A stretch of 64,000 bases of DNA, taken from the NCBI GenBank assembly GCA_008632985.1, contig QPGO01000071.1, positions 297,516 to 361,515 on the forward strand, in the 5' to 3' direction. The stretch is from Psammoneis japonica. Its lineage: Eukaryota. Shown here in pieces: positions 20,464 through 58,793 of the stretch (position 1 is its first letter; every line of letters begins with the position of its first letter). The translations under genes were made by a program, and so were the position numbers. Below the pieces are notes generated by a model that had not been told where the DNA came from, made no database searches, and was given only the letters and a program-made list of their open reading frames with translations.

Positions 20464-20949
20464 TCTTCTCTTCTCTGCTTCCTCCACTGTGCTGTGTGCG
20501 CCGTCAGCAGCACAGAACAACTCCCACAAGTTGTCAAGAGGCCATGGTGAAGGGTTGGTGTTGTTCCTTCTATGAAAATGTGATGCCTGTGTCAGCACCT
20601 TTGATGCAGCAGAGTTCTTGGACAACCTGTGGCTGCCTGATTGATGCAGTGTTGTGTGGTGCAAGCCGGGATGACGTGGGCGATCTTGGTTTGTGCAAGA
20701 AATCAATGAACCAACTCAACAATTGTGCCAGTCAACCTGGCACCCTCTGTGGATTTTTGGCCAGCTGGCAGCAAAATGCTCTAGACTGGCATCTAAATGG
20801 GAAAAGACAAAGCGAGGCACACTGAACATGTGGTGGTGGAGGAGCATCACACCAGCCGTCAGCTGTTCTGTGCCTTGGCACTTGGCAGGGCCCGCTGTTC
20901 TGTGCCTTGGCAGGGTGCTGTGGTGCAGCGACATGTGCTGCCCAAAGTC

Positions 20950-23750
20950 AAGGCCATCTGTCACCAATTTTCAACAGAGGCAGGTCCCCAGTTCAGGAGC
21001 TGACAAAGCAAAAATCTTGAAATCTAGCACACACTGTCAAAGTCTGTTCAAGACACCTCAGATGCACTTGCCCCATCCTCCTGCTCCTCTGTGCAATGAT
21101 GTGGATGTGTGAGGTGGGGCACCATCTTTGCATCTGCTTTTGGGCTCCTTTGTTCTCAGCTGTGCTGCAACCCATTTCCACAGCACAGCCTTTGCTCTGG
21201 CTGCAACTGGCTGGACCAACACTCCTGTGGTCCTTTGGTGCCTTTTTCTTGCCACTGCAATGATGGTTCAAGCCAAGGTTGCTTGTGTGTGTGTGTGGTG
21301 CTTCAACAATGATGTGACTGAGTGGCCATGAAAGAATCATCAGAAATTGGCTAGAAACTGTTCTGTGCTGCATCAAAAATGGCATCACACATGCCCACCC
21401 AGCTCCAGCATTGCCCGTTCTTCACTCAGCCAGGGGTGTGGTGCATCAACCTGTGTTTTTGCATTCCTTGTGGGATTTTGAGTGGCTGTTTGATTCAACA
21501 GCACAGCACCCACCTGAGGCTTGTCTTCTGAAAAAGCACCGCTGGAAGTGCTTGTCTTTTGCATGATTGATGCCTGCTCTTTTGCCACACAGCCTTCCAG
21601 AAGCCTGTCCCAACCAATGGTGCTCTGGGTTAGAATGGCTCTCAACTCCTGCTGCTGCAGCATTGTTCTTGTCTGTCCAGAAGATGTTTTTTTGAGAAGT
21701 TTGCTCCATTTTGTCATGGCTTCTGGGCATGCCATGGTGTGTGCTGCATCTTCATCCTCTCTTTCACATCAAGGGCATCTAGAGTGGGTCTTGGACTTTC
21801 CATCTCTTCAGCCATTTTCCAACTCTGCATGTTCCTGTGGAGTGCTTGCTGACCACTGGCAGCACCCTGTTCCCAAGTTGGTTAGAAACTTTGTTGATGG
21901 CCTCCCAGCTGACTCTTTGGCCTGGGGTGTGTCTTCCTTGGTGCTTGTGTCATTTTCTGACAAAAAATTCCAAAGGTGCTTGATGCCCCTGCAAGGCACA
22001 CTCAACGCTTGTGCAGCTGGGGGTGTGTGTTTTTCTTGGTGCTTGTGTCATTTTCTGGCAAAACTTTCCAAGAGTTCTTGGTCAAAAATGCTGTTGCAAG
22101 GCATTCAAACAAGGTCCTGTGTGATTTGCCCAAGAACCTGCCACCAACTCCAATTTTGAGTCCACATGCATTTCCAGCAGAGCTTGTGTGAGGTCACCTG
22201 CAACTGTTGTTGTTTCCCATGTTTGAGGAGGGCTTCAATGTGCTTCCTGAACATTGTGTGAATTCAACTGATTTGAACATGAGTCCTTGAAGTCTCTTCA
22301 CAGTCCCTTGAGTGCTGCTCTCAAAAGATCAGAGCTTTGATGTGCTTGCATTTTTTGGAGTTGTGGGCAAGCACATGAGCACATGACAACTGATCACTTT
22401 GCAAATCTGTTGCACAAGTCGTGACAGCCATGCATCTGATTTTGCAAGGTGGCCAGACTGCACATGGTCAGCCCAGGAGCATGCCTCTGCTTGTTGCTTG
22501 GCGCCACCACTGCCTTGCTGTGGTTGCCATTTTGTGCCAGCGACACCTCCTGAGTCTTCTTTGCTTTCCTTTGATGCAGGCATGACATCTGTTGCTTTTG
22601 GTCATTCTGGTTCTTGATGCACATGTGCAGATCATTCTCATTGGATGGATTGATTTCATTTTCCACATGATGTCATTCCCTGTTTTCCATTTTTAACTCA
22701 ATTTGGTGCCTTCAGCACTTGTCAGGCCACCACACATGTCTCCTCCAGCAACCCACACATCACCTGCAAATTGGTTGAGCCCTTCCTGCATGTCCTTGGC
22801 TGCTTCCAAGCAGCTTGGCCAGTGAAGATCCATGGCAAAAAAGGCAACCTGGCAAAATCTGTTGGGTGCCTCCATTTTCTTGTCTGAGACCCTGTGAATG
22901 CTTGTCCTCCAGATCAAAGTGTGTGGCCTCAAAGGCTGTCTGAAACAAAATGTCTGCTCAGGCCATCTGACAATCAGAGCCCATTGCACCTTGTCTCCAA
23001 AGAAACCACCTTGTTCAATTTGAGTGCCTGCAGCAGAGCACATCCTGTCAATCAGGAGAGCCCCAGGGTGACATGTTGCAGAGAGATGATGTTCCTCCCT
23101 GCACTTTTTAGATGAGACATTGTGCAGCTGCATCTTGTCAAAGCTTTCTTTGATTTTTGTGTTCCATTTCTGAGCTGTTTCCTCAAGAAGATTTTGAGTC
23201 CATGCAAGTCTTGGGCATCTGCTGTCATTGTGGTTTTCTCAAAAGAATTTTCAGTGCTGGGACATGGTCATCAATGAGCTGCAATGATGCCAAGAATGGC
23301 GGCTCCAGTCTTGCCTCTGAATCTTGACCACAGGTCCATCTGCCTGGCCTTGTGGGGTCTGTCCCTTTCATGACTGCTCTGTGTCCTGCTTGCTCAGGAC
23401 CAAGGTGCCCCCAGGTTGACAACGAGAGAAGTGTGCATCATCTGTGTTGCACCCCACACAGAAATGTGTGGTGGGAGCTCCCAGTGCTTTCTGAGTCATG
23501 CTTGTGGTTTCATTTCATGAGGCAGGGGGTGGGAGCATTCTCCAGCAGCTTTTGGTTTCACTCATGTGTGAAATGCTGGTGCTCTTGTCAGCCACCACTT
23601 GATGGATGCTGTCATTCTTTTCTCTTCATTGGAGCTTGGGACCCCATTGATGTTTTGGAAGGCTGTGCAGAGGGTGTCCTCTGTCTTGCATTTTGTGACT
23701 TTGGCCACACAGGTGTTGCAAGGTTTTGGTTGGTCTGTGATGTCTTGTGC
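20950..23750 (-). mobile_element. Degenerate APE-type non-LTR retrotransposon (LINE): endonuclease, RT and C-terminal zinc-finger remnants
   Basis: In order on minus strand: AFQNINGVP (about 23650), GTDPTRPGRWT (about 23350), MQEGLNQFAGDVWVAGG (about 22760), WADHVQSGHLAKSDAWLS (about 22450), HIEALLKHG, RCP*CEREDEDAAHTMAC (about 21750), QSTIGWDRLLEG (about 21610). Confidence 0.7.
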
Positions 23751-24218
23751 CCTGTTGTTGTTTCTTCCCAGGGGTGGCCATCTCTCTTCATCAAGGAGCC
23801 ACGTAGCCACAAGTCCTGTTTTTGCCTGCTGAGCTTTTTTTGCTTGCCAGCTTGAGTGGAGCTGGGGGGGTGACTTTCCTCCCCATGTCGCAGTGTGTGG
23901 CATTGCCAGAGATGCTTCTCTCCTTGCCATTTGTGTTGTTGGGCCACTCAAAGAGAACTTTTGGCAATCTTGGTGTCATCACCTTGGGTGCCAGGCATGC
24001 TGCCCTCATTGCCAGAGCTGCTGCTTGTCTTGCCCTTGTTTGTCAGCGCTGCTTTGAGTTGTGACACAAGCAATCTCACAGAAGTGTCCCTTGTTTCCTT
24101 CTGAAACAAAGTTTCCAGAAAACAAGCGAGCGACATTGCAAATTTGATTGGTGTGTTTTGTGGTTTCTTTTTGGTGGTTTTTGCTGTGGCTGCCACATCC
24201 AATTACAAAAAAGGCTGG

Positions 24219-24752
24219 TTGTTCTTGTGAGATGGTGTGTCACTTGCATCACTTGCATTGTTTGTTGTTTCTTGGGTGCAACATGGGCTGATTTGCCATT
24301 TTAGACACTGTGGGCTGACACAATTGTGTCTTTTTCATCCAATCCTCCTTCTCCAAGCATGACTGGATCTGCCGGATTGTCTGGACAAGTGCCCTTTGGT
24401 GGTGTGTCTCCAATGGAGCACCCCCCATCTCCTTCTTCTGCTGCAACCATCACCAAGATTCTTGAAGCTGTGCTCATGCTGTCCTTGATTGTCCTTGTGA
24501 AATGGTGTGTCATTTGCATCATTTGCATTTTTTGCTGTTTTTTGGGTGCAACATGGGCTCACTTGCCTTTTTAGACACTGCGGGCTGACACAATTGTGTC
24601 TTCATCTAATCCTCCTTCTCCAAGCATGACTGGATCTTCTGGATTGTCTGGAGTGTCCTTTGATGGTGTGTCTCCAGTGGAGCATCCCCTGTCTCCTTCT
24701 TCTGCTGCAGCCATCACCAAGATTCTTGAAGCTGTGCTCATGCTGTCCTTGA
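24219..24752 (+). repeat. About 270-bp tandem duplication (24219-24488 / 24489-24752)
   Basis: Near-identical units ending CACCAAGATTCTTGAAGCTGTGCTCATGCTGTCCTTGA. Confidence 0.92.
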
Positions 24753-25929
24753 GGGAGTGAGCTCCTTGAACACCACACCAACTTTGGTTCTTGGGTGGAT
24801 GGCTTCATGTTTCTCTTTTTTCCAGCCTGCCTTGCTTCTCTGCATGTGCTGCACATGACAGGAGAAAGAACTTTTCCATGTTCTTGCCATGCTTGAGATG
24901 TGGATGTGGGAGCACATGACACATTGGGGCCACTTTGTGCTCTGTTTGCAGATCACACAGGGCTGCCACACATCTGCTGCAAGCATTGGAATGTGTTGCT
25001 CCAACTTTCATGAGTTGAGGGACTTCAGGCTTGTGGTTTGATGAGACATCTGTTGTTGTCATTTTGCGCAGAGAGTGACTCCTCAATTTTTGGTCAACTG
25101 CATCAAGAGCTTGTGCGTTGTTGAGAATGAGAGTCTTTGATTGTGTGAGGCATGCTTGCTGCCAAATGTCTCCCTTGTCAACTGGATCAGATTCAGTCAA
25201 ACTGATGTGTTGTGAGCATTGAGGCATCAGTCTGGCTGATGTTTTGAGCAGCTGGTTCTTGGTGGCCCTGGAAAACGTTCATTGGAGCATGGGGCATGTT
25301 GTTCTGGCACCATTGGAGAGCCAACATTGTTGCAACAACCTGTTGGTTGCAGGAGGTCCCTTCTGCAGCATCTGCTGGTTTCATGACTTTCTTTGCTCTA
25401 AGCTCCACTGGCTTCCCAAGAAGCTGACTGACCCTTGGCTCCATTTTCACTGGGTCAAGTTGGCCCGACATCATTGTTGGCCAACCACAGCTTGTGGTGA
25501 GTTCTGCATTCTGTGGAACCTTGGGTTTGCACTCTCCAGATTTCCAGACAACTCTTGCCAATTCTTCTGAGTTGACCACAAGATTGATGTTTATTTTGCA
25601 CAAGTTGTGCACGCAGACAGAGGAAGAGGATTTCTCATGGGAGACTGGGCAGCCTGTTCTGCCTTTGTTGCAGTGCAATGAAAAGCAAAGAGAACTGTTG
25701 GAGCATGTTCCAGCTGAGCCATTTCTGTTTGCGGCTGCTGTGGATTGGAATGATCACTCAAGGTCATTAAAAATGAAATCACTGCCCAGCAATGATTTTT
25801 CATCCAGAAATGTTCAACAGGAGATGTTTTTAAAATGGGCCCCATGTGCCAGTGCACAGATCTCAAAAAAGAGGGGAAACAGCAAGACAGAGCAGGGTGC
25901 AGAGTGGATGCAATGCTGGTGACAAGGAT

Positions 25930-27150
25930 GCCACTGACAATCCACCATCATCCTGAAGTGAAATGATGTTCTCTGCAACTGCATGGCCACTCATGGCAGC
26001 ACTGTGTGCAAATGCCCAGTTGTGTGCATCGCCATCAAAAGGTGTGGCTTTTCCCACAAAAAAGAGCTTGTTGCTGCTGACAGGTCTTTGCATTGCATCA
26101 ATGGCGCAGTCACAAGATGCTCCCACTTTTGCCCAACAAGTGCAACCCATCTGAATGCATGGTTCCTCAACCCAGTTCTGAACAACACAATTGACAAGCT
26201 TGGATGAAGCCTTTCCATCAACATTTCATCCAAGTCTGCCAAGACTCCATCCACAGCACAACCACCTGATTGCTGGTTGCATTGACATGTTGATCTGCAA
26301 CAGCTCCACAAACAAAGAGCCCCAAGATGCCAGTGTTTGAAGTTTGGCCAAATGTCTCATCTCAGCACAGCCTCTTGCCAAAATCACTCAATGAGAGGTC
26401 TTCCACATCAAACTCATCAAAATCACATTCAATCACAAGCACCAAAAGGACAAAATGCATCTGTGTGCTTGCAAAACACCTTGATCCCAGGGGCCATTTC
26501 ACAGTCATCAATGGCTTGAGCGCAACTGTTGGGCTGGTCTGGAACAAAAAAAATGGCCTTGTTCTGCAACATCTGCCTGCATGATGCCTGAAACAACCAG
26601 TCTCTGTTTTTCCAAGAAGCTTTTATGAGCACGATGCTGTGGTCTGTTTGTGTCATGGGACAATCAAGAACGGTGTGTCTTCTGGATTCAAAGTCGACAC
26701 CAGTTGGTCATTGAGAAAGTCCCGTCACATTGAATTGACCCACTTGCAGTCATTTGCTGATGGTTCAAAATCAGCACAGTTGCAAATCAAAGAACCATCC
26801 ATGTGGACACCTCTGACACATGATGCTTGACTGTCGAAATGCTGCTTGCTGCATCTCTGTCTGCAATGGGATTCAAAGCTGACACTGGATCACTGTGAAT
26901 CCACTCTCCACCAACATCAATGGGAAAATCAGCCAAGGTGTTGTCTTTTTTCAACCAACTGCTGATGCAATCCAACACCTCGAGAATTGTGTGGGAAAGA
27001 CCTGCTTGTTCCAAGCATCAGGCTGCTGTCAAACCAGCCGCACCTGCTCTGACAACAAGAACATCCATCATGTTTGGTGCCGATGTGACAAACTGCACAG
27101 AGCAGAAAATGTTGTGGCAGAGAAAGCTGCTGCGGTCATGACAGAAATGA
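25930..27150 (-). pseudogene. Flavin-containing amine oxidoreductase pseudogene (hypermutated)
   Basis: DVLVVRAGAAGLTAA*CLEQAG.SHTILEVLDCISSWLKKDNTLADFPIDVGGEWIH (FAD fold), QNWVEEPCIQMGC, LFFVGKA, WAFAHSAAMSG; stops and frameshifts. Confidence 0.85.
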
Positions 27151-29349
27151 CGTGAAAGTGCAATTTTCAAATTTCAGATTGCCGCTGCATTTGCCACATC
27201 ATGATTGCATCATGATGTTGATGACATCAAAGGATTGCCATGTCATGTGGACATCATGTCAATGACGTGCATTGTCAAGGTGCATCTCATGCATCATCGT
27301 CTCTTGCCCCTTGCTCATGCTGTGCCCACTTGCCTCATCAACTCAGCTCAGACCAACAATCTTGCAAATTGTGCTGTGCTCTTTCTGGCAAAGCTGCCTG
27401 TGGTGAGCTCAGTCATGCCCAAATTTTCTTTCTCAATTCACAACCACAGATGGGGCAGAGTGTCAAATTTCACAAAATGTGCACTCTTCTCCACTCACAA
27501 AGTTGGCATGGGAGACAGGCGAGCATTGCGATGCCCTCCTGTGTTCTCACAATGAAGGACATCAACCAGCATCTGTGGAGGCAGTGGCTTGTTTTGCCAC
27601 CTTTGCTGCTTTAAAGTCTGTGTCTTCTTCTTGCACAGTTTCCAGGGGTCTGGCAAGCCATCTTGCGGTGCACGTGTGATGTGAGTTGGTTGCCCGCAGA
27701 AGAGCAGGCACTGTCTCCTTTGACGTTCCCACTCACAACACTCTTGATGAAGAGGAGAGATTTGGAAGAGCTGGGCTTGGCTGCACACATCCTGTGTGGC
27801 TCCACACATGTCCCCCAAGAGGTGCTGCACCAAACATTCTTTGCAGTGCTCCTGTTGTGCTGCTGCCAGCTCAATGGATGAATTGCTGCCAGCAAGGAAG
27901 CTCTTGCCAAGAGAAGATTGGCTGGCAAAGGCTCAATGGTCAACATGTGCACAATTTGTCTGTGAATTGAGGGTGGTGGCTGCTGGTCATGCTGCATGTG
28001 AGCCACGCACAAGACCCTCTCATGAGTTTGGGTGTGCAAGTTGATCCACTGGCCACCATTTCTCAATGTTGTGAATCTTTGTCATCCACAGTGTTCTTGG
28101 ACAAAGTTCTACCTGCAGTGCATTGTGCATCATTGGCGCCATCTTCATGTTCTTTGTGCTGTGAGCATGCCATGTCTTTCCAGCAGCACAGATTCTTGTC
28201 AGCAGGGATAAAGCCAGTGGACCATCATGGCTGCCACAGACATCAAAGCATGTGGCAACACTGTGTTGCTCTGCTGAGAATGTTCCAGTCAAGAGTGAAA
28301 ACCGTGTTTTGGACCAGCATTGTTGTGCCTGCAGCCCACAAACAATGCAGTCCCTTGCTGCTTGTTGTGGCCATGCTGACATCAGCACCTCACCCCTGAG
28401 ATCAGCTGTGGGCTGCCCAGGTGAGTTGCTCCATTTGGGGGGGGGGGGGGGGGCAACAAGCACCCAGATGGCATGAAAAAGCTTCCCAACACATGCTTTC
28501 ACCAACAGGTCATCCATCTCTCCATGCATGTTCAAATGCTCCATGCAGGTCCTCCTCAACTGTCTTCCAAAGTTGCCTCCTGATCATGGTGCTCTCAGCT
28601 CTTAATTTCTCTCAGCACATTGACAATGGGGAGAGCTCAGATCAAGTTGCAAGTGGGCCAGATGATGTCACAATTTGTCTGCTTTGAATCATTGCACATG
28701 CTGAAAAATCCTGTCTGAACTGCAAGATTGGAGCCGCACCCACACAAGATCTTGCTCCCCTGTGCAATGTCATGATCCTTGCACATTTTTTCAGGAAATG
28801 AAGATCCCCAAATGCGCCTCCCAATCAATTTGCTCCTGTGTGGGGTCAAGTCCTCTGCATTCCCCAGGGTTTGATTGACTCCTTGACAGCAACAGGGGGT
28901 GTCACTCCACTGGAGCTAAAATCACTGCATCAGGGCTGAGGTTGTCCTTGCACCATCTGCACCACAGATGGCAGTGCCTTTGATGACACCCCCCTTGCAC
29001 CAGCAGATGAATGTGTGGGGCTGGTGAGCCCTGCACTTGACACACTGCCGCTCATGGAGCAGCAGGAACAAGTGCTGGTGGGCAGACTGGGCCTGGTGCC
29101 ATCATTTTGTGCAAGACCCTTGACATCAGAATGTTGCAGTTGGGTTGGGTGAGCATTTGCTGATGGATTGTGCAGCTGCAGCTGGCAATGCCACTTCCAT
29201 TCATGGCAGCACTTCTGTCACCTTCTTGGGCAAGGAGCAGTTTTCCAGAGCTGAGCAGAGCCATGAAGCACCAGATGGTTGACTTGCCCAATGTCCAAGT
29301 CTTCATCTGAGTTTCTCTGGATCATTCCTGCTGACAGAACAAAGGCTGC

Positions 29350-31418
29350 ATGTTGCAGCTCTGGGTGGGACCTCACACTGCTGGACTGTGACATGAGAGT
29401 TTTTGGGTCATGTGCCGTGTGTCACGCGTGCACATTTCTGCATGTGTTCTTCTGCAAAATTGTCGTGTGCTCCTTGTTTTGCAAAGCCAAAGGCTTTTTG
29501 TTTTCCACCCATTGGCAAAAACAAAAAGTGACTGGGTGTGTTCTTCAATGTCTGTGGAGTGTGCCTTGCCAAGCTGGAAATGATGCACTCCAAGAATGAA
29601 AGAGGAGATGCAGTCACAAAATTGCCTCTTTTTCTGTTGATGACAACCAACACATTCACCACCCTGTCATTTTAGTGCAAAGCTTGTGTGCAGAATTCTG
29701 TGCACAAATGTCACACAGAGGAGCCCCGCCAAGGGCTGGAACACATCGGTCATGGCTTTCTGCCACAGTCTCCAGCATGGGTGAGAAGGAAATCCTGCTT
29801 GTTTTGGCCACTCAAAATTGAAGTGAGACACAGCCACAATGACCAAGATTTGCACTGCATTCAGCCAGTCAACAAAAGCCAATCTTCCTGAGCTTGTTGC
29901 CTTTGTGGCTCCTGTGACCAATGACCACATCTGCTGGGTGGGAGTTGCTCTCTTTGATTGGTTGAGTTGCCTCTGACAGGGCCAGAAGGTCAAAACCCCA
30001 TGTTCGCTGCAAAATTGTGACAGTGATTTCACCCAGGCATCTGCAGCTGACAGCTGACATTGTTTGCTGCTTCAGAAGCTGGAGCAAGCAAACCTTCTGG
30101 AAATGCTCCAGCTCAAGTGTTGTCATTTTGAGCACTTGTTAAAGTTCTGTGCTTGTGTCAGAAGGTGAGCCTCCAGCTTCAATGCCTGGGGTGATGCAGA
30201 TTTCTGATGCTCCCATGCTGCTGCTGGATTTCTTTGGTGTGCACGGGATTTTCTGCAGAAGCAAAGGGTCAAGGACAGCTCATCATTGGCTTCTTGCTGA
30301 TCTGCTGTGCACACTGTTTCCTTGTCAAGAAGAAGGAGGTTGCAGCCAATGGATGTTCTGTTGCTCTCATGACTCCACCTGTGAGAGACAGCCATGCCTT
30401 CATTTGGTTGATGTGGTGTTTGCTGCACTTTTTTTTTTTAGAATGGAAATTCTGTCACAATGTTTGGCCAGCATGTCTGCTTCTGCCAAGCAAATCACTT
30501 CATTGCAACACATTGTCAAAGTCAAAAACTGCCTCTGCAACATTCAGTGTGTGCTGGCTCACTCCAAATGTCCAAGCTGGTGGCCAACAAATTTGTTGAT
30601 CTTTTTGGGGCCAGTCATGTAGAAAAGAGTGCACACAACTCAGTTCTCCCAATTTTTTGCATCAACAAAAAATTGTGCCCCCAGAAGATTCTTCTTTTTT
30701 GGTGTGCATTCTTTGCACAACAGAGAGAGAGCAGACATCCTTTCAAAAAAATCAAGCACAGCAAAAGAAATGGAAAATCTGCTGTGCCCACATTCCCATT
30801 GTTTTGCCCCCAAAAAACAACTCCAAAAAAAGAGAGCTTTCTCTCTTTTTGTCTGCACCCTCCAAAGAACAAAAAAGGCTGCTGGTTGTTGTCCAATGAA
30901 AGAAGATGCAAAAAGGTGAGAAAAGCATGAGCTCAGATGAGAATTTTTTCTTGCACAAAAAGTGCCATGACAGAAAACAGACAGATCCAATGTTGTCACA
31001 CCCCCTCGTAAGTCACACGGGGATGAAAACACACTGGCACCACTTTTTTGTTCTTGTGAGCATGTGTCAAAATGGAAAGTCTGCAGCTTCACAAAACAGG
31101 GAGCACAAAACAATTCTGCAGAAGAGCGCATGCAGAAATGTGTGTGTGCAACATGTGACACACAACAGAAAAAACATTCATGTCACATCATGCCAGCACA
31201 TGTGCCCCCCCTCCTGGGGCTGCAGTGTGTCCTTCAAACACTGAATGAGAAAACACTTGGCCAGCAGTTTTTGTTTTCACAAATGGTGCTGTGACAAAAA
31301 GCCTTTGACTTCACAAAACAGTGAGTGTGAAACAATTTTGCAGAAGAATGTGTGCATGTGACATGCAGCACATTGTCAAAAAAGCTCTCATGTCCTCACA
31401 GTCAAGCAGTGGCTGGCC
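29350..31418. mobile_element. Possible non-autonomous TIR element: a + copy of the dispersed repeat (29350-29720) facing two - copies (31030-31210, 31245-31418)
   Basis: Reverse complement of 31245-31418 reads CACTGCTTGACTGTGAGGACATGAGAGCTTTTT..TTCTTCTGCAAAATTG..TCAAAGGCTTTTTG, matching 29375-29500; no TSD identified. Confidence 0.45.
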
Positions 31419-31543
31419 ATGAGGTGCTCTGTTCAGACCAAGGCGGTGGAGCACATTGAACAGCCAGCCAAATGCCACAATCATCAGCATTCCCCAGAAA
31501 GTCATGGCTTGTTCACAGCAGGAAGTGTGACTTTGGTGAAAAC

Positions 31544-31861
31544 AGCTGTTTGTTGAGCACCACACCTGCACCAAATCTGAGGGCTGGCTGGCACTTGAAG
31601 GCAGGCAAAAAGCATGGCTTGCATGCAGGACTGACAGCCCTGGTGGGGGCTGGGCAAACTCATCATGAGCACAGTTTTGGGGTGCTCAGAGGCACACTGC
31701 AAAGCAACAAGAGCTGTTTGTTGAGTGTTGCAACTGTGTGCATCAGATCCAACAGCTGGCATTTGAAGGCAGCCAACAAGTGCAGCTCACACACAGGTCT
31801 GGCAGCCCTGGTGGGGGTGCCAGACACACTCATCATGAGTGCTTTGGGGTGCTCAGAGGCA
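31544..31861 (+). repeat. About 168-bp tandem duplication
   Basis: AGCTGTTTGTTGAG..GCTGGCA.TTGAAGGCAG..CAGCCCTGGTGGGGG..ACTCATCATGAG..GGGGTGCTCAGAGGCA occurs twice. Confidence 0.85.
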
Positions 31862-31957
31862 TCAAAAATGACACCAGCAAAGTGCAGGAAAATTGCACAA
31901 AAAGAATCATGAGCCACTGAAGTCATGCCGCCACTCAAATCGATGGCCCATCCTTTG

Positions 31958-32843
31958 AGGTGGTGTGGGTGCAAAGTGGGCCAGGTTCTGCACACACAGA
32001 GCTCAGTGTGTTGTCTGCACAAATTGCCAAAGTCAGCTTGCCAAATCAAATCTGCCAGATGATGGAAACTTGAACATGTTTCACATGACAAAGTGTTCAG
32101 AGTGCTCATTTGCACTCCCATTGACTTGTTTGTGGAGAGAAACAACATGTTTTCTTGCACTCGTAATTTGCAGCATGGCTCCACAAAACTTGAGCATTAT
32201 GATTTTGGCACCTTTCTTGTCAGACTCAGTGTGTGTGATTTGTGCAAAGGTGGCGTGGGTTCAAAAGTGGGCCAAATTCTGCACACGTGGAGCTTGGCAT
32301 GTTTTCCACACAAATCGGCAAAGAGTCAGCTCACCAACTTCGACCCTCTCCATGATGATGGAAGCTTGGATGTTTCGCACATTCAAGCATTTGGGCCACT
32401 CATTTGCACTCCCCTTGACTTGCTTGTGCAGAGAGAAACAACATGTTTTCATGCGTTCGTCATTTGTTGTGGCCACGCAAAACTCAAACGTCGCAATTTT
32501 GGCACCTTTCTGATTGGGCTCGGTGTGTGTCTTTCAAAAAGATGTGAAAACATGTTGTTTCTCTCCACGAACAAGTCAAGGGGAGTCCAAACAAGCACTC
32601 CAAACACTTTGTCATGTGAATTGTCCAAGTTTCCATCGTCTTGGAGAGGGTCGAAGTTGGCAACAAGCTGACTTTGGTGATTTGTGCAAAGGTGGCACAG
32701 GTGCAGAAGTGGGCCAGATTCTTGGCACGCAGAGCTTGGCATGTTTTCCACACAAATTGCCAAAGTTAGCTCACCCTCTCCAGGACAATGGACAGAAACT
32801 TGGGCATGCCAACAAGCTCTGGCCCACTTTTGCACCCGTGTCA
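31958..32843. repeat. Foldback-like array of a 290-bp unit (direct, direct, inverted partial, direct partial, short inverted)
   Basis: Units at about 31958-32250 and 32248-32530 (+), 32547-32676 (-), 32677-32790 (+), 32821-32843 (-); shared AAGTGGGCCA, CATTTGCACTCCC.TTGACTTG, GAGAGAAACAACATGTTTTC. Confidence 0.8.
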
Positions 32844-35229: not shown

Positions 35230-35818
35230 TGGGCAACGCTGTTTATTAGAGCTAAGTCTCTAGCTACCGCATGAATTTGTATTTTTTGGTGTTGATGCTC
35301 GGGCCAACCCTGCTGAGATCTGGAGCTACCGATACAGCACATGGTATTACTCACAAGGAGAGATGAATATAAGTAAATCGATGGTCTGAAGGAATTACGC
35401 CAATTTCTTAGCCCACGGTGTCACCGTGTCATATGCATTTTAAGGGGAATCGTGCCGCGCTCTGGAGACCGCGATGCTCTTCCTAGCGGTACACAGACCA
35501 CTGAATGTATGATAAACAGTTGCTCTCGTGTTGGGTGTATGCGCACTATAGACTATAGCCCCGTCAAAGCCAAAGCACACCGAAACTCAACACAATAACA
35601 GGAAGGCAACCGAGGAGAGTTTCAGACGTGCATCGTGCACGACTGATTCATTCGACTGCGTGTCTTCTTTTTTGCCCCATGTTTTTTGGGTTTCAGACAG
35701 GTGTCAAAAAATGAGAACGCCTTCAAAATTCTCCTCAAGAACCCCCTTCCTCTACCTATTTGCACCTATTGATAGTTTCTGATATCTATTTTCCACTACC
35801 AGCCAACGACAAGCAGAG

Positions 35819-36712: not shown

Positions 36713-38899
36713 TTACCAGACCATGCCACTTCTGCCACTGAAGTCGTCCGTAATCGGGCACTCGCCCCACCTCGTGCAGATGCTTCTAAAGACGAGCTTG
36801 GAGACCGTTGAAATGTGGTGCCCAACAAAGGCTCGACAGAACTGAGCGCCGTGGAGACTCTCAATGAATGGATCCCAATCACTATAGGTCTCCTTGCTGT
36901 ACTGGTTATGTCCCGAAATGACCTCAATGAAATAACCCTCTTTTAACCACGGCGCCCGCTTCTCTTTGCCGACAACCTCTGGATCGTCTGTCATAACAAA
37001 CACATGCTTTGCATCACCGAGCTGGGCGAGCATCGGGACAGCCTTCTCCATGTAGTCCTTGAGCGAGAGATCCATGCTACAGACATCACTCCCTGGGTTC
37101 TCCTGGCACCGGTCTATGTTGTCCCCGCGGCGAATGTGCAGCGTGGCACACTGCCCCATTGCCAGGGCAGACTCCCATCCCTCGCCACGAGCGATCATAG
37201 CAGACAAACGTGGATGATAAAGGCGGGCGATGCGATTCCTACTGGACCGATTGAAGCGGGTTAGAAAGCTGCTGAGGATGTTGATATGCGACGACCGTGG
37301 CTGTTTTAAAGCAGTTCCATTGTGGCTGCCAAGGACATTTTGGAGAATGGTCCCTTCATTCCAACAGCAGGGTCTTCCGTCGTCCCCGCACTTTAAGCCA
37401 GTGAGCTGCACAATGCAGGTAGGTATCCTAATCCTGCTCGTAAACTCCAGTAACTTAACGCCAGTCTTTTCAATCTCCCCGAAGCCCATCGGTAATGATG
37501 GATCTGACAAGAGTTCTGGAGTTATTGACCTTGGTTCGCCTTTATAGCCAAACTGACTCTGTGGGCACCAATCGAAGAACGGCTTAGCAGGAGGGGCATG
37601 CGAATTAAGATCGTTGGATGGCGGGGCTTGCTCTCGGCTCGACTGGCAAACCTCGCTGGGAACTCCGTTCCTCGGGAGAGCTACTTTCATATTGCTCCCC
37701 AAACTGAATTGGCTCATACACTTAAGCGAGGGATCAACGCGGTCGTGGAGGCAAGTCCCACCAAAGATGGGAAGGAAGACGCAGTCTAAGCCATTCACGA
37801 CGCCAAGCTTAGGATCTATAGCGGCAACTGTTTCGGAGCTACAGGTGTAAAAATGGTACGTTCGCGCCCATTGCACAGGTTGAACACGGACAAAGGGGAA
37901 GCCCTTTCCAATGGCCGTGGCAAACCTATTGGCATTTCCAAAGGTCATGGCTCCCAGGAAGTCCTTTGGACCACCGTACTGCACCAATGTCCTCCCTTGG
38001 TTCCATGCCAAGTCGGCGGTACACTCACTGTCCTTGCCAGCATCGGCGGACGTGCCACTCGGGAATTGGTAGCGCCTTAGGGCGCCGGCGAATGCTGCCA
38101 ATTGCTCCTCTAAGACTCGAAGGAGAATCAAATCGACATGAATCAATTCGTCAATCAAGATAGAATTCCCACCGGGGGCCGCAGCAGCCTTGCCGCTCTC
38201 ACGCAGCGTTCTGCCGCTCGTATTGTCATGCAGTGTGTGGATCACTGAGATGAAGGGGTCTGCAAATGTTCCGGTTTCAGTCGGTGCATAGGCTGACGGG
38301 TCCAATAAGAGTCGTGTCTGAGACTGTTCAGCCGGCTTTGCCTTCCTAAAGTTACCGCCGCTTGTTTTGTTCCCAGGAGAAGCGTCAATGTCAGAAGACT
38401 CCTCCTTGTCTATGAAGCGCTCCACCATAATGCGCCAGTCCATGCGGGGAGTAAGAAACTCGTCAGCAACCAGGCCCAGTGATTCGATCATGTGAATTTT
38501 CCGACGATCAACGACGCTTATCGCGACGACGGCGGTGACTTTTGCATGGTCCTCGGCAGCATTAGAAAGTGCTACGAGGTGATCCAATAGACCGGCGTTG
38601 GACTCGAGACATCTGTTGGAAAGTGGTTCCAACTGCAGCTGGCCCGTACGATCGAACGCTGAAACGCTGTAAACGCAGTTCGAGTTCACATTCGCATCCT
38701 CGTTCAACTCAATGCTAATTTCCTCTTCCTTCTTCTCCCTTTCTTGCTGGTGCTGAAGGTTGGTGGGTCTATCGGTCGACTGTTTGCTCACTTGATTTCG
38801 AACCCCGATAACGTCGCTGTCGACATTGAAGCGCACCACAACTCCCAGGATAATGAGAAGTGCGCCACCAACAGGCAGCGCACGTTTCCCGGCACGCAT
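36713..38899 (-). CDS. Type II membrane glycosyltransferase, alpha-1,6-fucosyltransferase (GT23)-like, paralog A
   Basis: N-terminal TM anchor; LHIRRGD (motif I), VFVMTDDP (motif II), AQFCRAFVGHHISTVS (motif III). Confidence 0.75.
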   Translation of the reverse strand: MRAGKRALPVGGALLIILGVVVRFNVDSDVIGVRNQVSKQSTDRPTNLQHQQEREKKEEEISIELNEDANVNSNCVYSVSAFDRTGQLQLEPLSNRCLESNAGLLDHLVALSNAAEDHAKVTAVVAISVVDRRKIHMIESLGLVADEFLTPRMDWRIMVERFIDKEESSDIDASPGNKTSGGNFRKAKPAEQSQTRLLLDPSAYAPTETGTFADPFISVIHTLHDNTSGRTLRESGKAAAAPGGNSILIDELIHVDLILLRVLEEQLAAFAGALRRYQFPSGTSADAGKDSECTADLAWNQGRTLVQYGGPKDFLGAMTFGNANRFATAIGKGFPFVRVQPVQWARTYHFYTCSSETVAAIDPKLGVVNGLDCVFLPIFGGTCLHDRVDPSLKCMSQFSLGSNMKVALPRNGVPSEVCQSSREQAPPSNDLNSHAPPAKPFFDWCPQSQFGYKGEPRSITPELLSDPSLPMGFGEIEKTGVKLLEFTSRIRIPTCIVQLTGLKCGDDGRPCCWNEGTILQNVLGSHNGTALKQPRSSHINILSSFLTRFNRSSRNRIARLYHPRLSAMIARGEGWESALAMGQCATLHIRRGDNIDRCQENPGSDVCSMDLSLKDYMEKAVPMLAQLGDAKHVFVMTDDPEVVGKEKRAPWLKEGYFIEVISGHNQYSKETYSDWDPFIESLHGAQFCRAFVGHHISTVSKLVFRSICTRWGECPITDDFSGRSGMVW

Positions 38900-38999
38900 G
38901 TTCCCGACAGCCTGCCTATTTTGCTTCGCTTGATTTTATGTTATTGACGTTCCGTTTGGTCTCTATGGTAAGTAGTGAAACATAGAAACCGCTTGACCA

Positions 39000-40810
39000 C
39001 TTGGGTTTTGGAAGCACTCACAACAGTGGTGCCTTGACACTGAAAATGACACTTGACAATGAAAATGAGAGGAATGCATGGAGCAAATCCAGACATCATC
39101 ATCGTCCATTGTCGCGAGGAGTCGCGACCGGTGTTGGTGTTTCAGTGCGTGTGCTGCGTCAATGACCCTTTCCGATCTTTGGACAAAAATAGAAGAATTG
39201 TGACTACTCACTCCGCGCCCGCGCTGGGCTGCTGCTGGCTGGGCTGCTGGGCCGCTCTGCCCTGCTCGTCGCGCGACCAGAGGGCACGTCCCACAACAAC
39301 CCCCTGCCATTGTTGGGGGAGCTCCACCAGTGCTGTCAGAGTCTGTTCCATGCCCCCCACGCTTCTTGGAAAATGAAGCATCTCCAGCCACTCCAGCTCC
39401 CTTGTCCACTGCACAGCAGCTGCAGCACCAGCATCCAACACAGCAGCTGCAGCGGCGCCTTTGGTGCGCCGCTGTTGCAGCACAAGCTCTTTGCCCGAAG
39501 CAGTGCTTCCCATGCAAACCACCCTGCCTGCACTGTGTTGCTCTGACTCTTTCAAGCTCAGTGTCTGTTTTGAATTAAGCAAGAACAACCAAGTTGAGGC
39601 ACAGGCCATCTTGCACTTCCTCCGTCTTGTTCTACACACAACCTTTTTGTTTTTTCTGGGACACCAGCAGCAGCTCCTCCTGAGTTGATGCCTGGCCAGC
39701 AGAGAGGAGGATTTGAGAGTGGTCTGCAAAACCCCTCCAAAGACATCTGCTGGAGAACTCCACCACAATTTTACAAGCTTGGCAAGGCCAGAGCAGATTT
39801 CAGCTGGGCCCTCCTGCAAAACCCACGCGCACAGTCAAAGCAAAAGCAGCCGACTCTTCCTGCAAGCCCCCCCCCCCAGCCACCCCAAGCAGCATGGAGA
39901 AACAACTCCAGAAATTTTTCTCATGGATGACCCAGATGTGCCCCCCCCCCTGGCATGGCAAGGCACTTCTTCTTGCTGACACTCTGTGCTGGCAGCAGCA
40001 ACCCCAGCTCTGTGCAAGATCGCTGCCACCCGGCATGTGTTGGGAGGGCAGAGCAATGTTGGGGAGGAAACCATGTGTGTTGCTCTCTGGATTTTACACC
40101 ACTCACCACACCATGCTGCAGCTGCTGGCTGCCTCCCCCCCCTTGCAACAAAGATGCGCGCCATGCCACGAGCACATCGCACACTGTGGGCTGCCCCTTG
40201 ATGGCCCCTTTTGCCTCAATTTTTTGTCACACTCACACAAGAGCTGCAGCTCCAATCTCTGTGAAAAAGGGGGAAAATGTGCTGCCTTGTTGTTTGAAAA
40301 GAATCATGTTGCCACCAGCACATCACAAGGGGTCTTTTCCTGTGTGGTGGTGTGTGTCCCCCCCCCCCCCGCCACCACTCCAGGAGCTCAAGGGATGCCC
40401 CCTTGCTCTTTCAATTCAGTCATTCAATTCATCATTTGCTGCCTTTGTGTGTGAAAATTCAGTGAAAAAACAAGGGACAGCCAAGAGATTTCCAAGAGCT
40501 GGGTGATGCTGCAAAATCCAGAAAGGTGGCTGGGCATGTGTGTTTGTTCCTTGCTCAATTTTGCCACTCTGCATGCTTTCTGTTCTCTCTCATGCATTGT
40601 TGACTTTCTCTTTTCAATCACTTGTGGCTGACATGGGATGGAAATCTGGCTTGCCATCCCAAGGTCAAACAGGGCATGTCATCAATGCTGGGTGCCATTG
40701 TCCACAGGCTCAGACCACTGTCTGGTGTCATGCCTTTTTGGGACATCGAGAGAAAATGGCTTCCATCCAAAAGCCTGTTCTACATTGTTTGCACTCCCAT
40801 GACTGCAACA
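39000..40810. other. TpA/CpG-depleted hypermutated domain 5 (between the two GT paralogs)
   Basis: TA near absent; several poly-C tracts; ends about 30 bp from the paralog B stop codon. Confidence 0.85.
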
Positions 40811-40842: not shown

Positions 40843-43041
40843 TTATTGCCAGACAAGGCCACGTTCACCACTGAAGTCATCAGCAATGGGGCACTCGCCC
40901 CATCTTGTGCAGATGCTTCTAAAGACAAGTGCGGAGACAGTCGAAATGTGGTGCCCAACAAACGCTCGACAGAACTGAGCACCGTGGAGACTCTCAATGA
41001 ATGGGTCCCAGTCACTATAGGTCTCCTCGCTGTACTGGTTATAGCCAGAAATCACCTCGATGAAATAACCCTTTTTTAACCAGGGCACCTGCTTCTTCTT
41101 CTTGGCAACCTCTGGATCATCAGTCATGACAAAGACGTGCTTGGCGCCACCGAGCTGGGCGAGCATCGGGGCGGCCTTCTCCATGTAGTCTGCGAGCGTG
41201 AGGTCCATGCTACAAAATAGCTTCTCTCCTTTCTTGCACCGGTCCATGTTGTCGCCGCGGCGAATGTGCAACGTAGCGCACTGCCCTGTTGCCAGGGCGT
41301 TCTCCCATCCGACCCCGCGGGCGATCATGGCCGACAAGCGTGGATAATAAAGGCGGGCGATGCGATCCCTGCTAGACCGATTAAATCGGACAAGATAGCT
41401 GTTGAGGACGCTGTTGAAGAACTCCCGTGATATCTTTTCAGCAGTTCCGTTGTGGCTCCCAAGGACGTCTTGCGAAATGCTCACTTCGTCCCAACAGCAG
41501 GGTCTGCCGTCGTCTCCGCACTTTAGGCCTTTGAGCTCCATCGTGCAGGTCGGCGTCCTCTCGTTTATCGTCTTCATGTCCATCCTGTTCAACTCACCGA
41601 AGCCCATTGGTGCTGAAGGATTTGACAAGAGCTTTGGCGTGATCGTCCGGTTGCTTTCATAGCCAAATGGTTGACACGCTGGGCACCAATCAATGAACGG
41701 CTGGGCAGGGCCACCGTAAAGGTTAGTTGCATTGTATGGCGGGGCTTGCTCGTGGCTCAATCGGCAGACCTTCTTGGGGACGCCGTTCTTCGGAAGGACA
41801 ACATGCATAAGGCTCCCCATCTTAAACTCGCTCATGCACTTGAGCGAGGGATCGACTCGGTCGTGTAGGCAGGTCCCGCCGTAAATGGGAAGGAAGCCGC
41901 AGTCTAAGCCATTCACAATGCCAAGCTCAGGATCAATCGCAGCAACCGTTTCGGCGCTGCAGGTTTCAAAATGGTAAGTTCGCGCCCACTGAGCAGGTGA
42001 GACGCGGATAAAGGGAAAGCCCCTTGCGATAGATTGGGCAAGGGATCTGGCACTGGTTACGGTCCACGCTCCAAGAAAGTCCTGCTGGCCGCCGTACTTG
42101 ACCCAGGTCCGCCCCTTGTTTATTTCCAAACCGGCGGCACACTCACTATCCTCGCCTTCGTCAATGGAAGTGCCTTTGGGGAACTGAAAGCGCCGCAAGG
42201 CATTGGCGAATGCTGCTAGTTTTTCCTCCAAGACTCGAACAAGAATCAAATCGACATGAATCGAAGCGTCAATAAAGTTTGAATTCCCGTCCATGGCCCT
42301 TGCAACGTTTCTGTTCTTGTTCCCGCTCCCCAGCAGCGCTCGACCACTCGCGTTATCACGCAGCGTGCGGATCGCTGCAATGAAAGGGTCTGCGAATGTT
42401 CCGCTTCCGCCCGTTGCATAGGCTGACGGGTCCAACAAGAGTCGTGACTGAGAAAGTTCAGCCGGCTTTGCCTTCCTAATGTTACCGCTGTACGTTTTGT
42501 TCCCAGATGCAACAGAGTCAATGTCAGAAGACTCCTCCTTGACTACGAAGCGCTCCGCCATAATGCGCCAGTCCATACGGGGAGTAAGAAACTCGTCAGC
42601 AACCAGGCCCAGTGATTCGATCATGTGAATTTTCTGACGATCAACGATGGTAATCGCGACGACGGCGGTAGCTTGTGAATTGTCCACGGCAGCGCTAGAA
42701 AGGGAAGTGAGGTGAGTCAGCAAGTCGGCGTTGGAATCGAGACAACTATTGGAAAGTGGTTCCAACTGCAGCTGGCCCATCCGGTCGAAAGCGGAAACGC
42801 TGTAAACACAGTTTGAGTTCACAGTCGCATCCTCATTCAACTCAAAGCTATCGACCTTTTCTTCCTTCTTCTCCCTTTCTTGCTGGTGCTGAAGGTTAGT
42901 GGGCCTATCGGTTGACCGGTTGCTCAGTCCATCTCGAACCTCGTTAACGTCGCTGTCGACATTGAAGCGCACCACAACTCCCAGGATGATGAGAAGTGCG
43001 CAACACACCGCCAAGGAACGTTTCGCGGCATACCGGTACAT
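40843..43041 (-). CDS. Type II membrane glycosyltransferase, GT23-like, paralog B
   Basis: Colinear along its full length with paralog A; same three fucosyltransferase motifs. Confidence 0.75.
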   Translation of the reverse strand: MYRYAAKRSLAVCCALLIILGVVVRFNVDSDVNEVRDGLSNRSTDRPTNLQHQQEREKKEEKVDSFELNEDATVNSNCVYSVSAFDRMGQLQLEPLSNSCLDSNADLLTHLTSLSSAAVDNSQATAVVAITIVDRQKIHMIESLGLVADEFLTPRMDWRIMAERFVVKEESSDIDSVASGNKTYSGNIRKAKPAELSQSRLLLDPSAYATGGSGTFADPFIAAIRTLRDNASGRALLGSGNKNRNVARAMDGNSNFIDASIHVDLILVRVLEEKLAAFANALRRFQFPKGTSIDEGEDSECAAGLEINKGRTWVKYGGQQDFLGAWTVTSARSLAQSIARGFPFIRVSPAQWARTYHFETCSAETVAAIDPELGIVNGLDCGFLPIYGGTCLHDRVDPSLKCMSEFKMGSLMHVVLPKNGVPKKVCRLSHEQAPPYNATNLYGGPAQPFIDWCPACQPFGYESNRTITPKLLSNPSAPMGFGELNRMDMKTINERTPTCTMELKGLKCGDDGRPCCWDEVSISQDVLGSHNGTAEKISREFFNSVLNSYLVRFNRSSRDRIARLYYPRLSAMIARGVGWENALATGQCATLHIRRGDNMDRCKKGEKLFCSMDLTLADYMEKAAPMLAQLGGAKHVFVMTDDPEVAKKKKQVPWLKKGYFIEVISGYNQYSEETYSDWDPFIESLHGAQFCRAFVGHHISTVSALVFRSICTRWGECPIADDFSGERGLVWQ

Positions 43042-43479
43042 GTTTTCTGAACCTTACACAGCTTTAATTCTGGTGAAGGACTTCTGATGCTGCTTGTGCT
43101 CCTTAGAAGTACTGTACAGTGGCAATCGATTGTTCTGGTAAGACAAAACACAAAACACTAAACACTTGAACCTGAAAAGAGAACAGAGAGCGCCTATGGC
43201 GAGGTGATTGCCGTTCGCATTCGTTCAACTCAATACCGACCACGACCAAAAACTGCCACCTACCTACAGCCCGCGCGCAGAGTTACTGTAGTCGATCGTT
43301 TTGCCGTCCAAGAAAAAAGACTCGACTGTGTAGGACGGAACGGAATTCGTTGTCAAAGATTTATGTATGTTTAGGTCTCTCTAGTAGTCGTGCTCTCTGA
43401 ATATATTCGGCACATATACAAGAGTGGGGGACATGCTGTACACAGCACGAGTCGTACATTGGTTAGCGGAAAAAGCCGT

Positions 43480-48870: not shown

Positions 48871-49206
48871 CCAGATGGCAGTGGTAGACGTAGGTGCATA
48901 TTAACCGAAAATTGTTTTTAGCGATGTACCGTCACGCCTAATCCATAACCTACATCCAAGCACTTGCCGCTACTCGACGGACCTCGATTAGTTTTACCGA
49001 TTGCCGAATAGAAAAAAATCTGAGACCTGCATAAATGTAACTTTAAGCGCGCTTCTGGCTGAACATCACTCAACACAACGTTGTCAGACCATGAAATGAC
49101 TTCCAAGTTCTCTGGATATCGCATTAGACTATTATTTAGCGTGCAGCTAGTAGTCGCATTTATTGACTATTAAAGTCGCCAATGTACTTGTTTAGCTAGA
49201 GCAGCA

Positions 49207-50397
49207 TCACGCCTGTTTGGGACATTTGAGTGAAACGGGTTTCCACCCTCTCTTTCGCAAGTTTTGTTCCACACCGTCCACATGCGCAATGCCCATGACC
49301 GCAACAATTGCAGGGAATTGATTGAGAATGTCAATGCCGTTGGCCATGTACAAGTCTCGTTCCGCCACCATGGCTGTGTAGATTTTGGGTGCCAGCTTTT
49401 TCAACTCCCCCATGAGCAACTTTACATTTTCTTTTGCCTTCATGGTTTCAACGTATTGAGAAAATTCTTGTCGAAACTCGTCATCGTCCTTTAGCTGTTC
49501 CGTCTTGGCATTGACGAGTGCCTCGGTATTGGGTGAGAGTTGCTTCATCATTTCTTCCAATTCCGAGTCAGGACTTAAAAACACATTCAGATCCGTTTCG
49601 GCCAACGCTTGCGTCAATCGTTTCAGCGTTTCTTGAACATCTCGATCACCAAGCACAATTTTGGAACCAACCTTTTTGCCCTCGCGAATGGCCACGGCAA
49701 ATTCTTCGCCCGTTTGGAAACCAGCGTCTTCCATTTTGTTGTACATGCCCCGAATAGCTCCACCCACCGCGGCGGATCCCGCTTGAACGGCACGTTGTTT
49801 CAAATCAAATGGATTTTGTTTTCTTGTTTTTGGTGGTGCGGTCTGTGTATTACTTGACTCAGCCACGACAGCTGTACTGCTATCGCTGATTTCTTCAAAG
49901 GACGCTGGCGGTGGCACAGTCACGAGCTGACCTTCCGATCCTTCCACAGACCCATCGGGCAAGACGCCGAATCGCCCTCCCACGACACGTCGTGCATCCA
50001 ACTCCAAATAGACTGCATCGGGATGAACATCGTCCACCAAGTTCCCAGCTAGCATTGCGGATTGGGATGAAATGTGAGCCGTTCCCAACAAGTACACCTT
50101 GCGACCATTTGCCGGATTTTCCCACACAGAAACCGATGCATCGCATTCGGGTAATTGTTTTGGAGAATCTGCCCACGCTACATCACTACGCGTGCCAATC
50201 ACTGCGCCACCAACGACGGCAGCACCGACTCCCGCTATCCAGTCTCGTCTTGACGACGATGCAAAGAGGGAGGTAACCTGTCGTGTAATACCACTTGACG
50301 TAGAAACAGTAGTAGGTCTTCTTCCTGATGATGGTGAAATCCATGCTTGTACAGCTGGAGCGGCGGCACAAAAAATCAAGAGAGCGAGGGGAACCAT
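49207..50397 (-). CDS. TraB/PrgY (TRABD) family protein with plastid and probable thylakoid-lumen presequence
   Basis: VYLLGTAHIS, VYLELDARR, GEEFAVA, LGDRDVQETLKR, ERDLYMA, VAVMGIAHVDG motifs; signal peptide ending VQA-WISP; SSRRDW..hydrophobic..AWA-D. Confidence 0.88.
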   Translation of the reverse strand: MVPLALLIFCAAAPAVQAWISPSSGRRPTTVSTSSGITRQVTSLFASSSRRDWIAGVGAAVVGGAVIGTRSDVAWADSPKQLPECDASVSVWENPANGRKVYLLGTAHISSQSAMLAGNLVDDVHPDAVYLELDARRVVGGRFGVLPDGSVEGSEGQLVTVPPPASFEEISDSSTAVVAESSNTQTAPPKTRKQNPFDLKQRAVQAGSAAVGGAIRGMYNKMEDAGFQTGEEFAVAIREGKKVGSKIVLGDRDVQETLKRLTQALAETDLNVFLSPDSELEEMMKQLSPNTEALVNAKTEQLKDDDEFRQEFSQYVETMKAKENVKLLMGELKKLAPKIYTAMVAERDLYMANGIDILNQFPAIVAVMGIAHVDGVEQNLRKRGWKPVSLKCPKQA

Positions 50398-50966
50398 GTT
50401 GTGGAAAGTGCCGTTTGCAGGCTTTATGATGTTGTTTCTCTCTTTTGTCGTTTTGCAATCCCTGCTCTTGTAGCAATTCGAAATCATAGGGAGTAACTTT
50501 CACACTCTTGTCAGTTCTCGGATCCACGAACTGATTCAGCGCTCACAACGCAACACAAGTAAACATTCAGCATAGCAGACATGCGGCAAGCGACAACACA
50601 GCGCAGAGAAAGGCAATTGAAATCTGGAAATTCCAAAAAATTGAAAATCGGCAGTCATCATTGCGCGTCGTGCTTCGCGCGCAAAAATCGGATGAAACAA
50701 GTGCGTCATTCCTGCGTCATTTCGTGTTTCGCCACCCACATTTTCAAAATTCTCAATTCTGATTCGTTAAAAGCTCGTACGGTAGGCTTGGTACGTTTCT
50801 ACACAGAGTGACACGCCCACTTCAAATCATCGGAATGTTCTGACGGGAGTGATGTCGCCGAGCCATCAGTTCTCACTTTGTTGTGTGTTGTCATTGGCAA
50901 TTGACACCAACGACAAAGACCTTTCTCATTATACATCTCACAATCTCTTAGCAGAATCACATCATC

Positions 50967-58680: not shown

Positions 58681-58793
58681 CGGGGAGATGGATGTGTGTG
58701 ATTGTTGTACTACGCGCTTTTGACTGTATCAAAATCAAGCGTTCTTTGTGTAGTAAGCAGTTCTATTATTAGTATCGTCTGTATGTATGCTGT

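Follow-up and report, generated by a model that had tools for sequence, protein, structure and literature searches.

In the diatom Psammoneis japonica, an amine-oxidase gene has lost nearly all of its TA dinucleotides and most of its CG dinucleotides to two classes of transition, TA to TG or CA and CG to TG or CA, which acted on both strands and in a fixed order, TA before CG. The gene lies in the window analyzed here, a 64-kb stretch of contig C72 in a 91-Mb assembly of 597 contigs. Dinucleotide counts divided the window into normal gene clusters alternating with sharply edged blocks in which TA and CG are both scarce, and within the window the two depletions have common boundaries. In the largest block (positions 20601–32200), 31 TA and 71 CG were present against 768 and 676 expected, compared with 573 TA (1016 expected) and 928 CG (862 expected) in the flank at 49001–64000; positions 25930–27150 held a single TA (86.6 expected) and 12 CG (65.4 expected). 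We regard it as probable that a once-working gene was silenced and then eroded by a fast TpA mutator, with slow CpG decay following. A diatom amine-oxidase gene belonging to a small family would have come into silenced chromatin between retroelement-like relics. Fast, TpA-specific A>G transitions on either strand, most efficient at T-A-pyrimidine, would have come first and removed nearly every TA and all Tyr codons; slow decay of methylated CpG would then have taken approximately 93% of CG, while ordinary substitutions and slippage indels alongside would have broken the frame.

Features of the depleted block and of the amine-oxidase pseudogene (window coordinates)
Feature	Position	Strand	Remark
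TA/CG-depleted block with sharp edges	20500..32800	.	About 12 kb, the largest in the window; holds the amine-oxidase pseudogene
Decayed LINE-like repeat of about 5 kb (label tentative), downstream of the gene	20600..25600	-	Collinear decayed copies on C13, C4 and C159, 58–71% identity
Flavin amine-oxidase (PF01593) pseudogene, about 400 codons, copy W, one of five in the genome	25863..27071	-	3' end placed by comparison with where the frame of copy b ends
EEPCIQMGC: Tyr>Cys twice, Thr>Met (a CpG change) once	26142..26168	-	TAC kept in b and a, respectively
Five frameshifts: -1 at 26801, +2 at 26678, +1 at 26447, +5 at 26260, -1 at 26222	26222..26801	-	Also in short-read contigs
In-frame TGA at an inferred Tyr codon	26362..26364	-	Requires a TA step and a transversion
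In-frame indels of W	+6 at 26784, -15 at 26593	-	Also in short-read contigs
In-frame TGA from TGG (invariant Trp)	26725..26727	-	Neither a CpG nor a TpA change
FAD-binding motif, codons 32–39: CG>TG/CA at six sites	26955..26978	-	Compared with copy b DNA
In-frame TGA, codon 18	27018..27020	-	Ancestral Tyr (TAC in fragment d); requires a TA step and a transversion
Second decayed relic (label tentative), upstream of the gene	27500..28600	-	Weakly similar in protein to a decayed LINE-like frame on C145
MITE-like repeat with long terminal inverted repeats	32247..32690	.	25 copies used as an independent polarized test

The amine-oxidase gene and its copies

Copy W carries the GxGxxG FAD motif and a match to PF01593, as expected of a flavin amine oxidase. 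The Pfam match was weak on the frame of W itself (E 0.003), and a sister copy gave E values of 1.8e-21 and 2.3e-9. Pfam analysis of 12 translations covering all six frames of the block returned only the amine oxidase and two sub-threshold chance matches. W has no intact reading frame, being interrupted by three stops and five frameshifts. Four further copies were located on contig C2, including two of full length (b, near 1034 kb, 80% identical; c, 74% identical), the 3' part of a third (a, 81%), and a 5' fragment (d). All five copies are broken: b by one frameshift with no internal stop, c by one stop and several frameshifts, a by two insertions, and d by one stop and three indels. No intact member of the subfamily was found in the assembly by a DNA search (5 of 5 candidates scored) or by protein searches (28 of 28 and 37 of 37), and the nearest intact gene, on contig C229, shares 33% identity and is distant in the tree, among bacterial-like rows.

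Intact relatives are present in Thalassiosira profunda, T. oceanica, and Seminavis robusta, with transcriptome entries for that of T. oceanica. In a quick tree of 59 proteins, W, b, and c formed a clade with Thalassiosira proteins with a support of 98, and the gene is best supported as a host-type diatom enzyme. A viral or foreign origin did not hold for the target, which groups with the Thalassiosira proteins and has repeat relics as neighbors. The initial annotation had taken the locus as a sign that ordinary genes are hit; the enzyme does appear to be of host type, but the gene is multi-copy and sits between two decayed retroelement-like relics. Another amine oxidase is represented on contig C103 by two broken copies (L092:5000–5435 and L093:3685–4724), one of which lies outside a depleted block and keeps Tyr, the other inside a block with Cys at the same sites.

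Evidence that W once worked as a paralogue is mixed. Changes outside the two classes showed some selection in W, with pN/pS values of 0.40 and 0.58, compared with 1.05 and 0.94 for changes within them, and there was no selection on the class changes. A comparison of transversions at fourfold and second positions was significant in two of five pairs of copies (p=0.004 for W–c and 0.03 for b–c, with 0.41 for W–b, 0.34 for W–a, and 1 for b–a).

Mutation classes, their share of the damage, and their order

The minus-strand DNA quoted in the initial annotation is present as cited, and the two classes that it proposed are real and run in the direction that it gave, with the other copies in the genome agreeing. 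The codon alignment to paralogues and the sorting of substitutions that it called for were carried out against the broken copies. For its run of six consecutive codons restored by CpG reversion in the FAD-binding motif, copy b reads EASDRIGGR, and all six differences from W in 24 bases are CG>TG/CA, but the changes are spread over six of eight codons (32, 33, 35, 37, 38, and 39). Restoration of Tyr by TA reversion is borne out by TAC codons retained at codon 306 in b, at 311 in a, and at 18 and 19 in d. Sixteen codons were inferred as ancestral Tyr (posterior at least 0.9), and in W these read nine Cys, four His, two stops, one Phe, and no Tyr. Homologues with Cys or His at such sites would speak against the inference; none of 24 homologues had Cys at any of the 16 codons, while His occurred in 5 of 24 at codon 107 and was the commonest residue at codon 19 (10 of 24, with Tyr in none), where the objection formally applies and where fragment d nevertheless still has TAC.

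Reversion by eye is ambiguous because TG or CA may derive from either CG or TA, and three of the proposed ancestral residues are wrong. The TGA at 27020, read earlier as CGA (Arg18), traces to TAC, with TAC in d, TGC in c, and Tyr in 12 of 24 homologues; the Thr placed at codon 28, as part of an SYT motif, is GCG (Ala) in b, c, and d. Both Tyr residues proposed for the EEPCIQMGC segment are upheld, but Met309, left as Met, goes back to Thr, which b encodes as ACG and which 11 of 14 close homologues have.

The two classes are the largest cause of substitution in W, although not almost the sole one. Class changes made up 105 of the 217 differences between W and b. Against a context-free ancestor they accounted for 59 of 152 changes, or 66 of 206 when W was left out, both shares being lower bounds that miss steps lost in all copies. 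A context model (a codon HMM with YpR context, using the five copies, a star tree as an approximation, and a profile of the 14 closest homologues) assigned approximately 113 of 179 changes (63%; 60–65% over 300 sampled ancestors) to the two classes, figures that may be high, like the TA count, as the modeled ancestor has 46 TA/kb compared with 31/kb in the intact genes of the window. The share expected by chance was 16% in a context-free simulation, and a simulation with CpG changes only gave no loss of TA. Among 117 conserved positions (conservation in 11 or more of 14 homologues, after masking of the 12 codons that surround the 15-base deletion), 82 were identical in W, two gapped, and 33 changed, including 12 single CG and five single TA steps; in a tally by hand, with rows 41, 118, 149, 214, 247, 267, and 280 dropped, at which the change is shared by the other copies or the residue is missing from them too, and codons 27 and 238 taken as Tyr from the paralogues, 19 of 26 changes belonged to the two classes. 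The earlier statement that the gene was destroyed almost entirely by the two classes is thus too strong: they supply 39–63% of substitutions, and none of the three stops or five frameshifts of W is a pure CG or TA event. Roughly 40–60% of the substitutions and all of the frame-breaking lesions have other causes.

The order of the two classes emerged from comparison of the copies. Fitted fractions of TA and CG hit were about 98–100% and 93% in W, 98% and 83% in c, 86% and 21% in b, and 90% and 27% in a; fragment d, which lies outside any block, had lost about 2 of 6 TA and 2 of 12 CG. Since the less decayed copies had lost about 86–90% of TA and only 21–27% of CG, TpA erasure is separate from, and faster than, CpG decay. 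Other transitions affected 2–4% of sites in W, b, c, and a. Double differences of the TG/CA type numbered 20 between W and b and 43 between W and c, whereas the seven remaining types of double transition gave 0–6 each. Strands were about equally affected in W, where TA gave 27 TG and 22 CA and CG gave 31 TG and 33 CA.

The MITE-like repeat provided a second, polarized data set of 25 copies, comprising the non-identical loci aligned over 380 bases (27 fetched) and the window copy. Hitting of TA was all-or-none, with 0–4 of 27 TA hit in seven copies and 17–26 in the other 18 (two of which have one common pattern), whereas CG loss ranged from 1 to 18 of 21 and increased with background change. 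One copy had 19 of 27 TA hit, with 1 of 21 CG and 1 of 334 other transitions. Adenines preceded by T were changed in 395 of 912 cases and those preceded by G in 35 of 1003; the corresponding counts in the four gene copies were 159 of 357 and 8 of 542.

The flanking bases also mattered. In depleted DNA, surviving TA numbered 2 of 631 expected in RTAY, 44 of 1101 in mixed contexts, and 70 of 352 in YTAR. Retention in TA-poor, CG-rich DNA was 0.063, 0.18, and 0.50, respectively, the YTAR value being somewhat inflated by a baseline that includes coding DNA avoiding TAA and TAG. By trinucleotide, the MITE copies were hit at 140 of 251 TAC, 100 of 204 TAT, 54 of 169 TAG, and 85 of 288 TAA. Together these counts indicate that TAY is favored over TAR, additively across strands. 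Same-strand processivity was considered and rejected as a general feature: W had 10 runs compared with 17.8 expected (z=-2.7), but b, c, and a had no such deficit, and the 18 hit MITE copies gave p=0.19 and 0.08.

Guidance of the process and competing explanations

W lies between the LINE-like repeat and the second relic, which is followed by MITE-like repeats. We tentatively take the 5-kb repeat to be LINE-like from its motifs and from one zf-RVT match on its C13 copy, which fell below the cut-off (E 0.021). The second relic had no DNA match elsewhere in the genome and no Pfam match; a second host gene at 27.5–28.6 kb was considered and rejected, the only match being the decayed LINE-like frame. 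A locus-by-locus silent state is the best fit for guidance of the process.

The strongest challenge to this account concerns the order of events. The gene may already have been a frameshifted pseudogene when the mutator reached it, so that junk was finished off and no working host gene was lost. We consider this doubtful but a serious contender. It draws on the fact that no stop or frameshift of W is a class event, on fragment d and the C103 fragment of another amine oxidase, both broken without TA loss, and on the lack of selection on class changes. Copy b argues the other way, having lost 12 of its 16 inferred Tyr codons with one frameshift and no internal stop, as do the MITE copies, in which TA loss was nearly complete ahead of background change, so that TpA erasure would be expected before most indels. 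This alternative disputes the order alone and leaves room for the chemistry of our preferred explanation.

Homology sensing of the RIP kind would have hit the gene for being a repeat, present in five copies, with its neighbors irrelevant. All four long copies were indeed hit, and two MITE copies (L046 and L047) were hit within flanks of normal TA and CG content, so targeting can stop at the element and broad spreading is unnecessary. Duplication alone seems insufficient, however, because a 79% identical gene pair, seven of the 25 MITE copies, and fragment d were spared. The pair is a tandem duplicate in the window (36713–38935 and 40843–43053, identity over 2.2 kb) with 31 and 27 TA/kb, although selection could account for its preservation. 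Conversely, positions 27120–29300 were purged with no DNA match elsewhere, and the chemistry is opposite to that of RIP, with ancestral TG/CA sites flipped in only 0.7 of 160 cases. We therefore consider homology sensing unlikely. The intact tandem pair has a TA- and CG-purged spacer at approximately 39200–40800.

Another proposal keeps silent DNA as the target and changes the lesion: a modified thymine, such as 5-hydroxymethyl- or 5-formyluracil on R-T-A, would pair with G and give T>C. Modified thymines of this kind occur in dinoflagellates, and we know of none in diatoms. By sequence, the A of TAY and its partner T in RTA give identical spectra; the TAY pattern fits a TadA-type enzyme, and we rate the thymine lesion as less likely again than homology sensing.

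Both depletions end at the same boundaries in the window, as would be expected of one coupled process in which T:G mismatch repair after 5mC deamination recruits an error-prone, pol eta-like polymerase that mutates nearby TA. Pol eta favors the WA motif, and AA>AG was slightly above GA>GG (25 of 546 compared with 8 of 542 in the gene copies, and 91 of 1475 compared with 35 of 1003 in the MITE). However, TA was lost with CG almost intact in copy b and in the MITE copy described above (19 of 27 TA, 1 of 21 CG), AA was hit about ten times less than saturated TA (0.05–0.06 compared with 0.43–0.45), and the changes were nearly all transitions, all of which makes such coupling improbable. Finally, an assembly or base-calling artefact, which the three W frameshifts that are single-base changes within homopolymer runs might suggest, is hardly credible and already largely refuted, because short-read contigs over 24723–26501 and 26486–28451 (possibly from the same sample as the assembly) match W with no differences and no gaps, so that the W lesions are not long-read errors, and adjoining genes have normal composition and long frames.

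Known systems, candidate enzymes, and related loci

The closest known counterpart of the TpA step is found in Bigelowiella natans, where NCLDV and virophage insertions undergo TpA hypermutation, measured de novo at a rate about 1000-fold over background (Mettrop et al., bioRxiv 10.64898/2026.01.13.699255). Going by that preprint, the two systems resemble each other in TpA>TpG/CpA changes on both strands far above other changes, in bounded silent regions that are on or off (between lines there, between repeat copies here), and in the presence of some host-type Pfams among TpA-poor coding sequences, like the host enzyme here. They differ in that the B. natans targets are viral inserts far from saturation, whereas the present process is saturating and has struck a cellular enzyme family in a stramenopile. 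The main text of the preprint has no occurrence of 'CpG' and describes no flanking preference, whereas here CpG decay follows and TAY is preferred; a term search of the same main text gave no occurrence of 'diatom'. No report of such hypermutation in a diatom was found in the literature searched, in which subscription journals were thinly covered.

In Neurospora, RIP converts C to T and increases TpA; it is linked to duplication, and its changes fall in clusters on a single strand (PMC7296669). Going by that account, the diatom process shares with RIP dense transitions in repeats, the killing of genes, and an ability to extend to flanking DNA, and departs from it in using TpA as the substrate, sparing some duplicates, and lacking strand clustering as a general feature. 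C>T at CpA with gain of TpA was absent (1 TA compared with 87 expected, and the few flips noted above), and from these base changes the process is judged not to be RIP.

For the CpG step, CG methylation by DNMT5 has been described in transposable-element islands of diatoms (PMC9998398), and the symmetric CG>TG/CA change observed here, which increases with age, is what such methylation followed by 5mC decay would give. The assembly has 27 matches to PF00145. 5mC turns into T by spontaneous decay, and the loss of CG here probably reflects such deamination. Loss of TA, which comes first, is left unexplained by it. C5 DNA methyltransferase genes on contigs C301 and C297 (L106 and L107) are themselves TA-poor (2–8/kb) and CG-rich.

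For the TpA step, we lean toward enzymatic deamination of adenine in DNA by a TadA/ADAT-like protein, and silencing would be its guide. Engineered TadA-derived adenine base editors peak at TAY (PMC10879117) and, in the data reported there, share A>G change in DNA and a preference for 5' T and 3' pyrimidine with the process seen here. One natural ADAT2, from amphioxus, has been shown to edit DNA (PMC10354150); the preference described for it is GAA, unlike the TA target here. No unusual chromatin-fused deaminase was found among the five PF14437 matches (six candidates scored), which comprise a TadA-like protein (C38), an ADAT2-like protein (C26), a dCMP deaminase (twice), and a deaminase-2OG-Fe(II) fusion, all ordinary-looking by sequence. 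The fusion (L099:319–1791, contig C79) joins a zinc deaminase domain and a 2OG-Fe(II) dioxygenase in one frame. The two dCMP deaminase frames (L097 and L098, on C41 and C317) are identical, which suggests that the assembly is partly redundant for haplotigs.

The single earlier measurement of natural A>G editing in nuclear DNA comes from a preprint and concerns viral inserts in an unrelated alga. A diatom version that reaches saturation, with a defined motif and a visible time order, offers a route to the enzyme, possibly a natural adenine base editor, in a group with genetically tractable models. The locus also shows the cost: a cellular enzyme family of which the assembly retains no intact copy. 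More tentatively, a chromatin-guided DNA adenine editor acting at T-A-pyrimidine may still be active, turning silencing into permanent gene loss as a silenced locus is stripped of its Tyr codons almost immediately, and may have erased every copy of a subfamily that is kept and expressed in other diatoms. In a short-read contig over 19000–24476, three of the four differences consist of a TG/CA swap at 21553–4 and a CA/TA difference at 22433, which give a weak hint of current activity; at least two TA>CA differences between assembly and short reads also occur in normal DNA near 35.4–35.5 kb. Positions 35350–35800 hold a cluster of such differences and gaps, possibly a second haplotype.

TpA transition steps cannot generate stop codons, so dead Tyr-free frames can pass for genes in annotation. 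An elongation factor 2/G-like gene on contig C159 (L091:398–2091, about 170.9–172.6 kb; GTP_EFTU, E 9e-21) has long open frames, 0–1 TA/kb, 37–39 CG/kb, and no Tyr, and lies beside a LINE-like relic, as a host-type gene at the TA-only stage would. A Copia-like retrotransposon on C2 (L008, 1042000–1050000) combines long frames with very little TA and a normal CG content, consistent with TpA erasure on a young element. In the window itself, a gene at 56786–58680, presumably sugar-kinase-like, shows a change of frame near 58300 that may represent an intron, a frameshift, or an assembly error.
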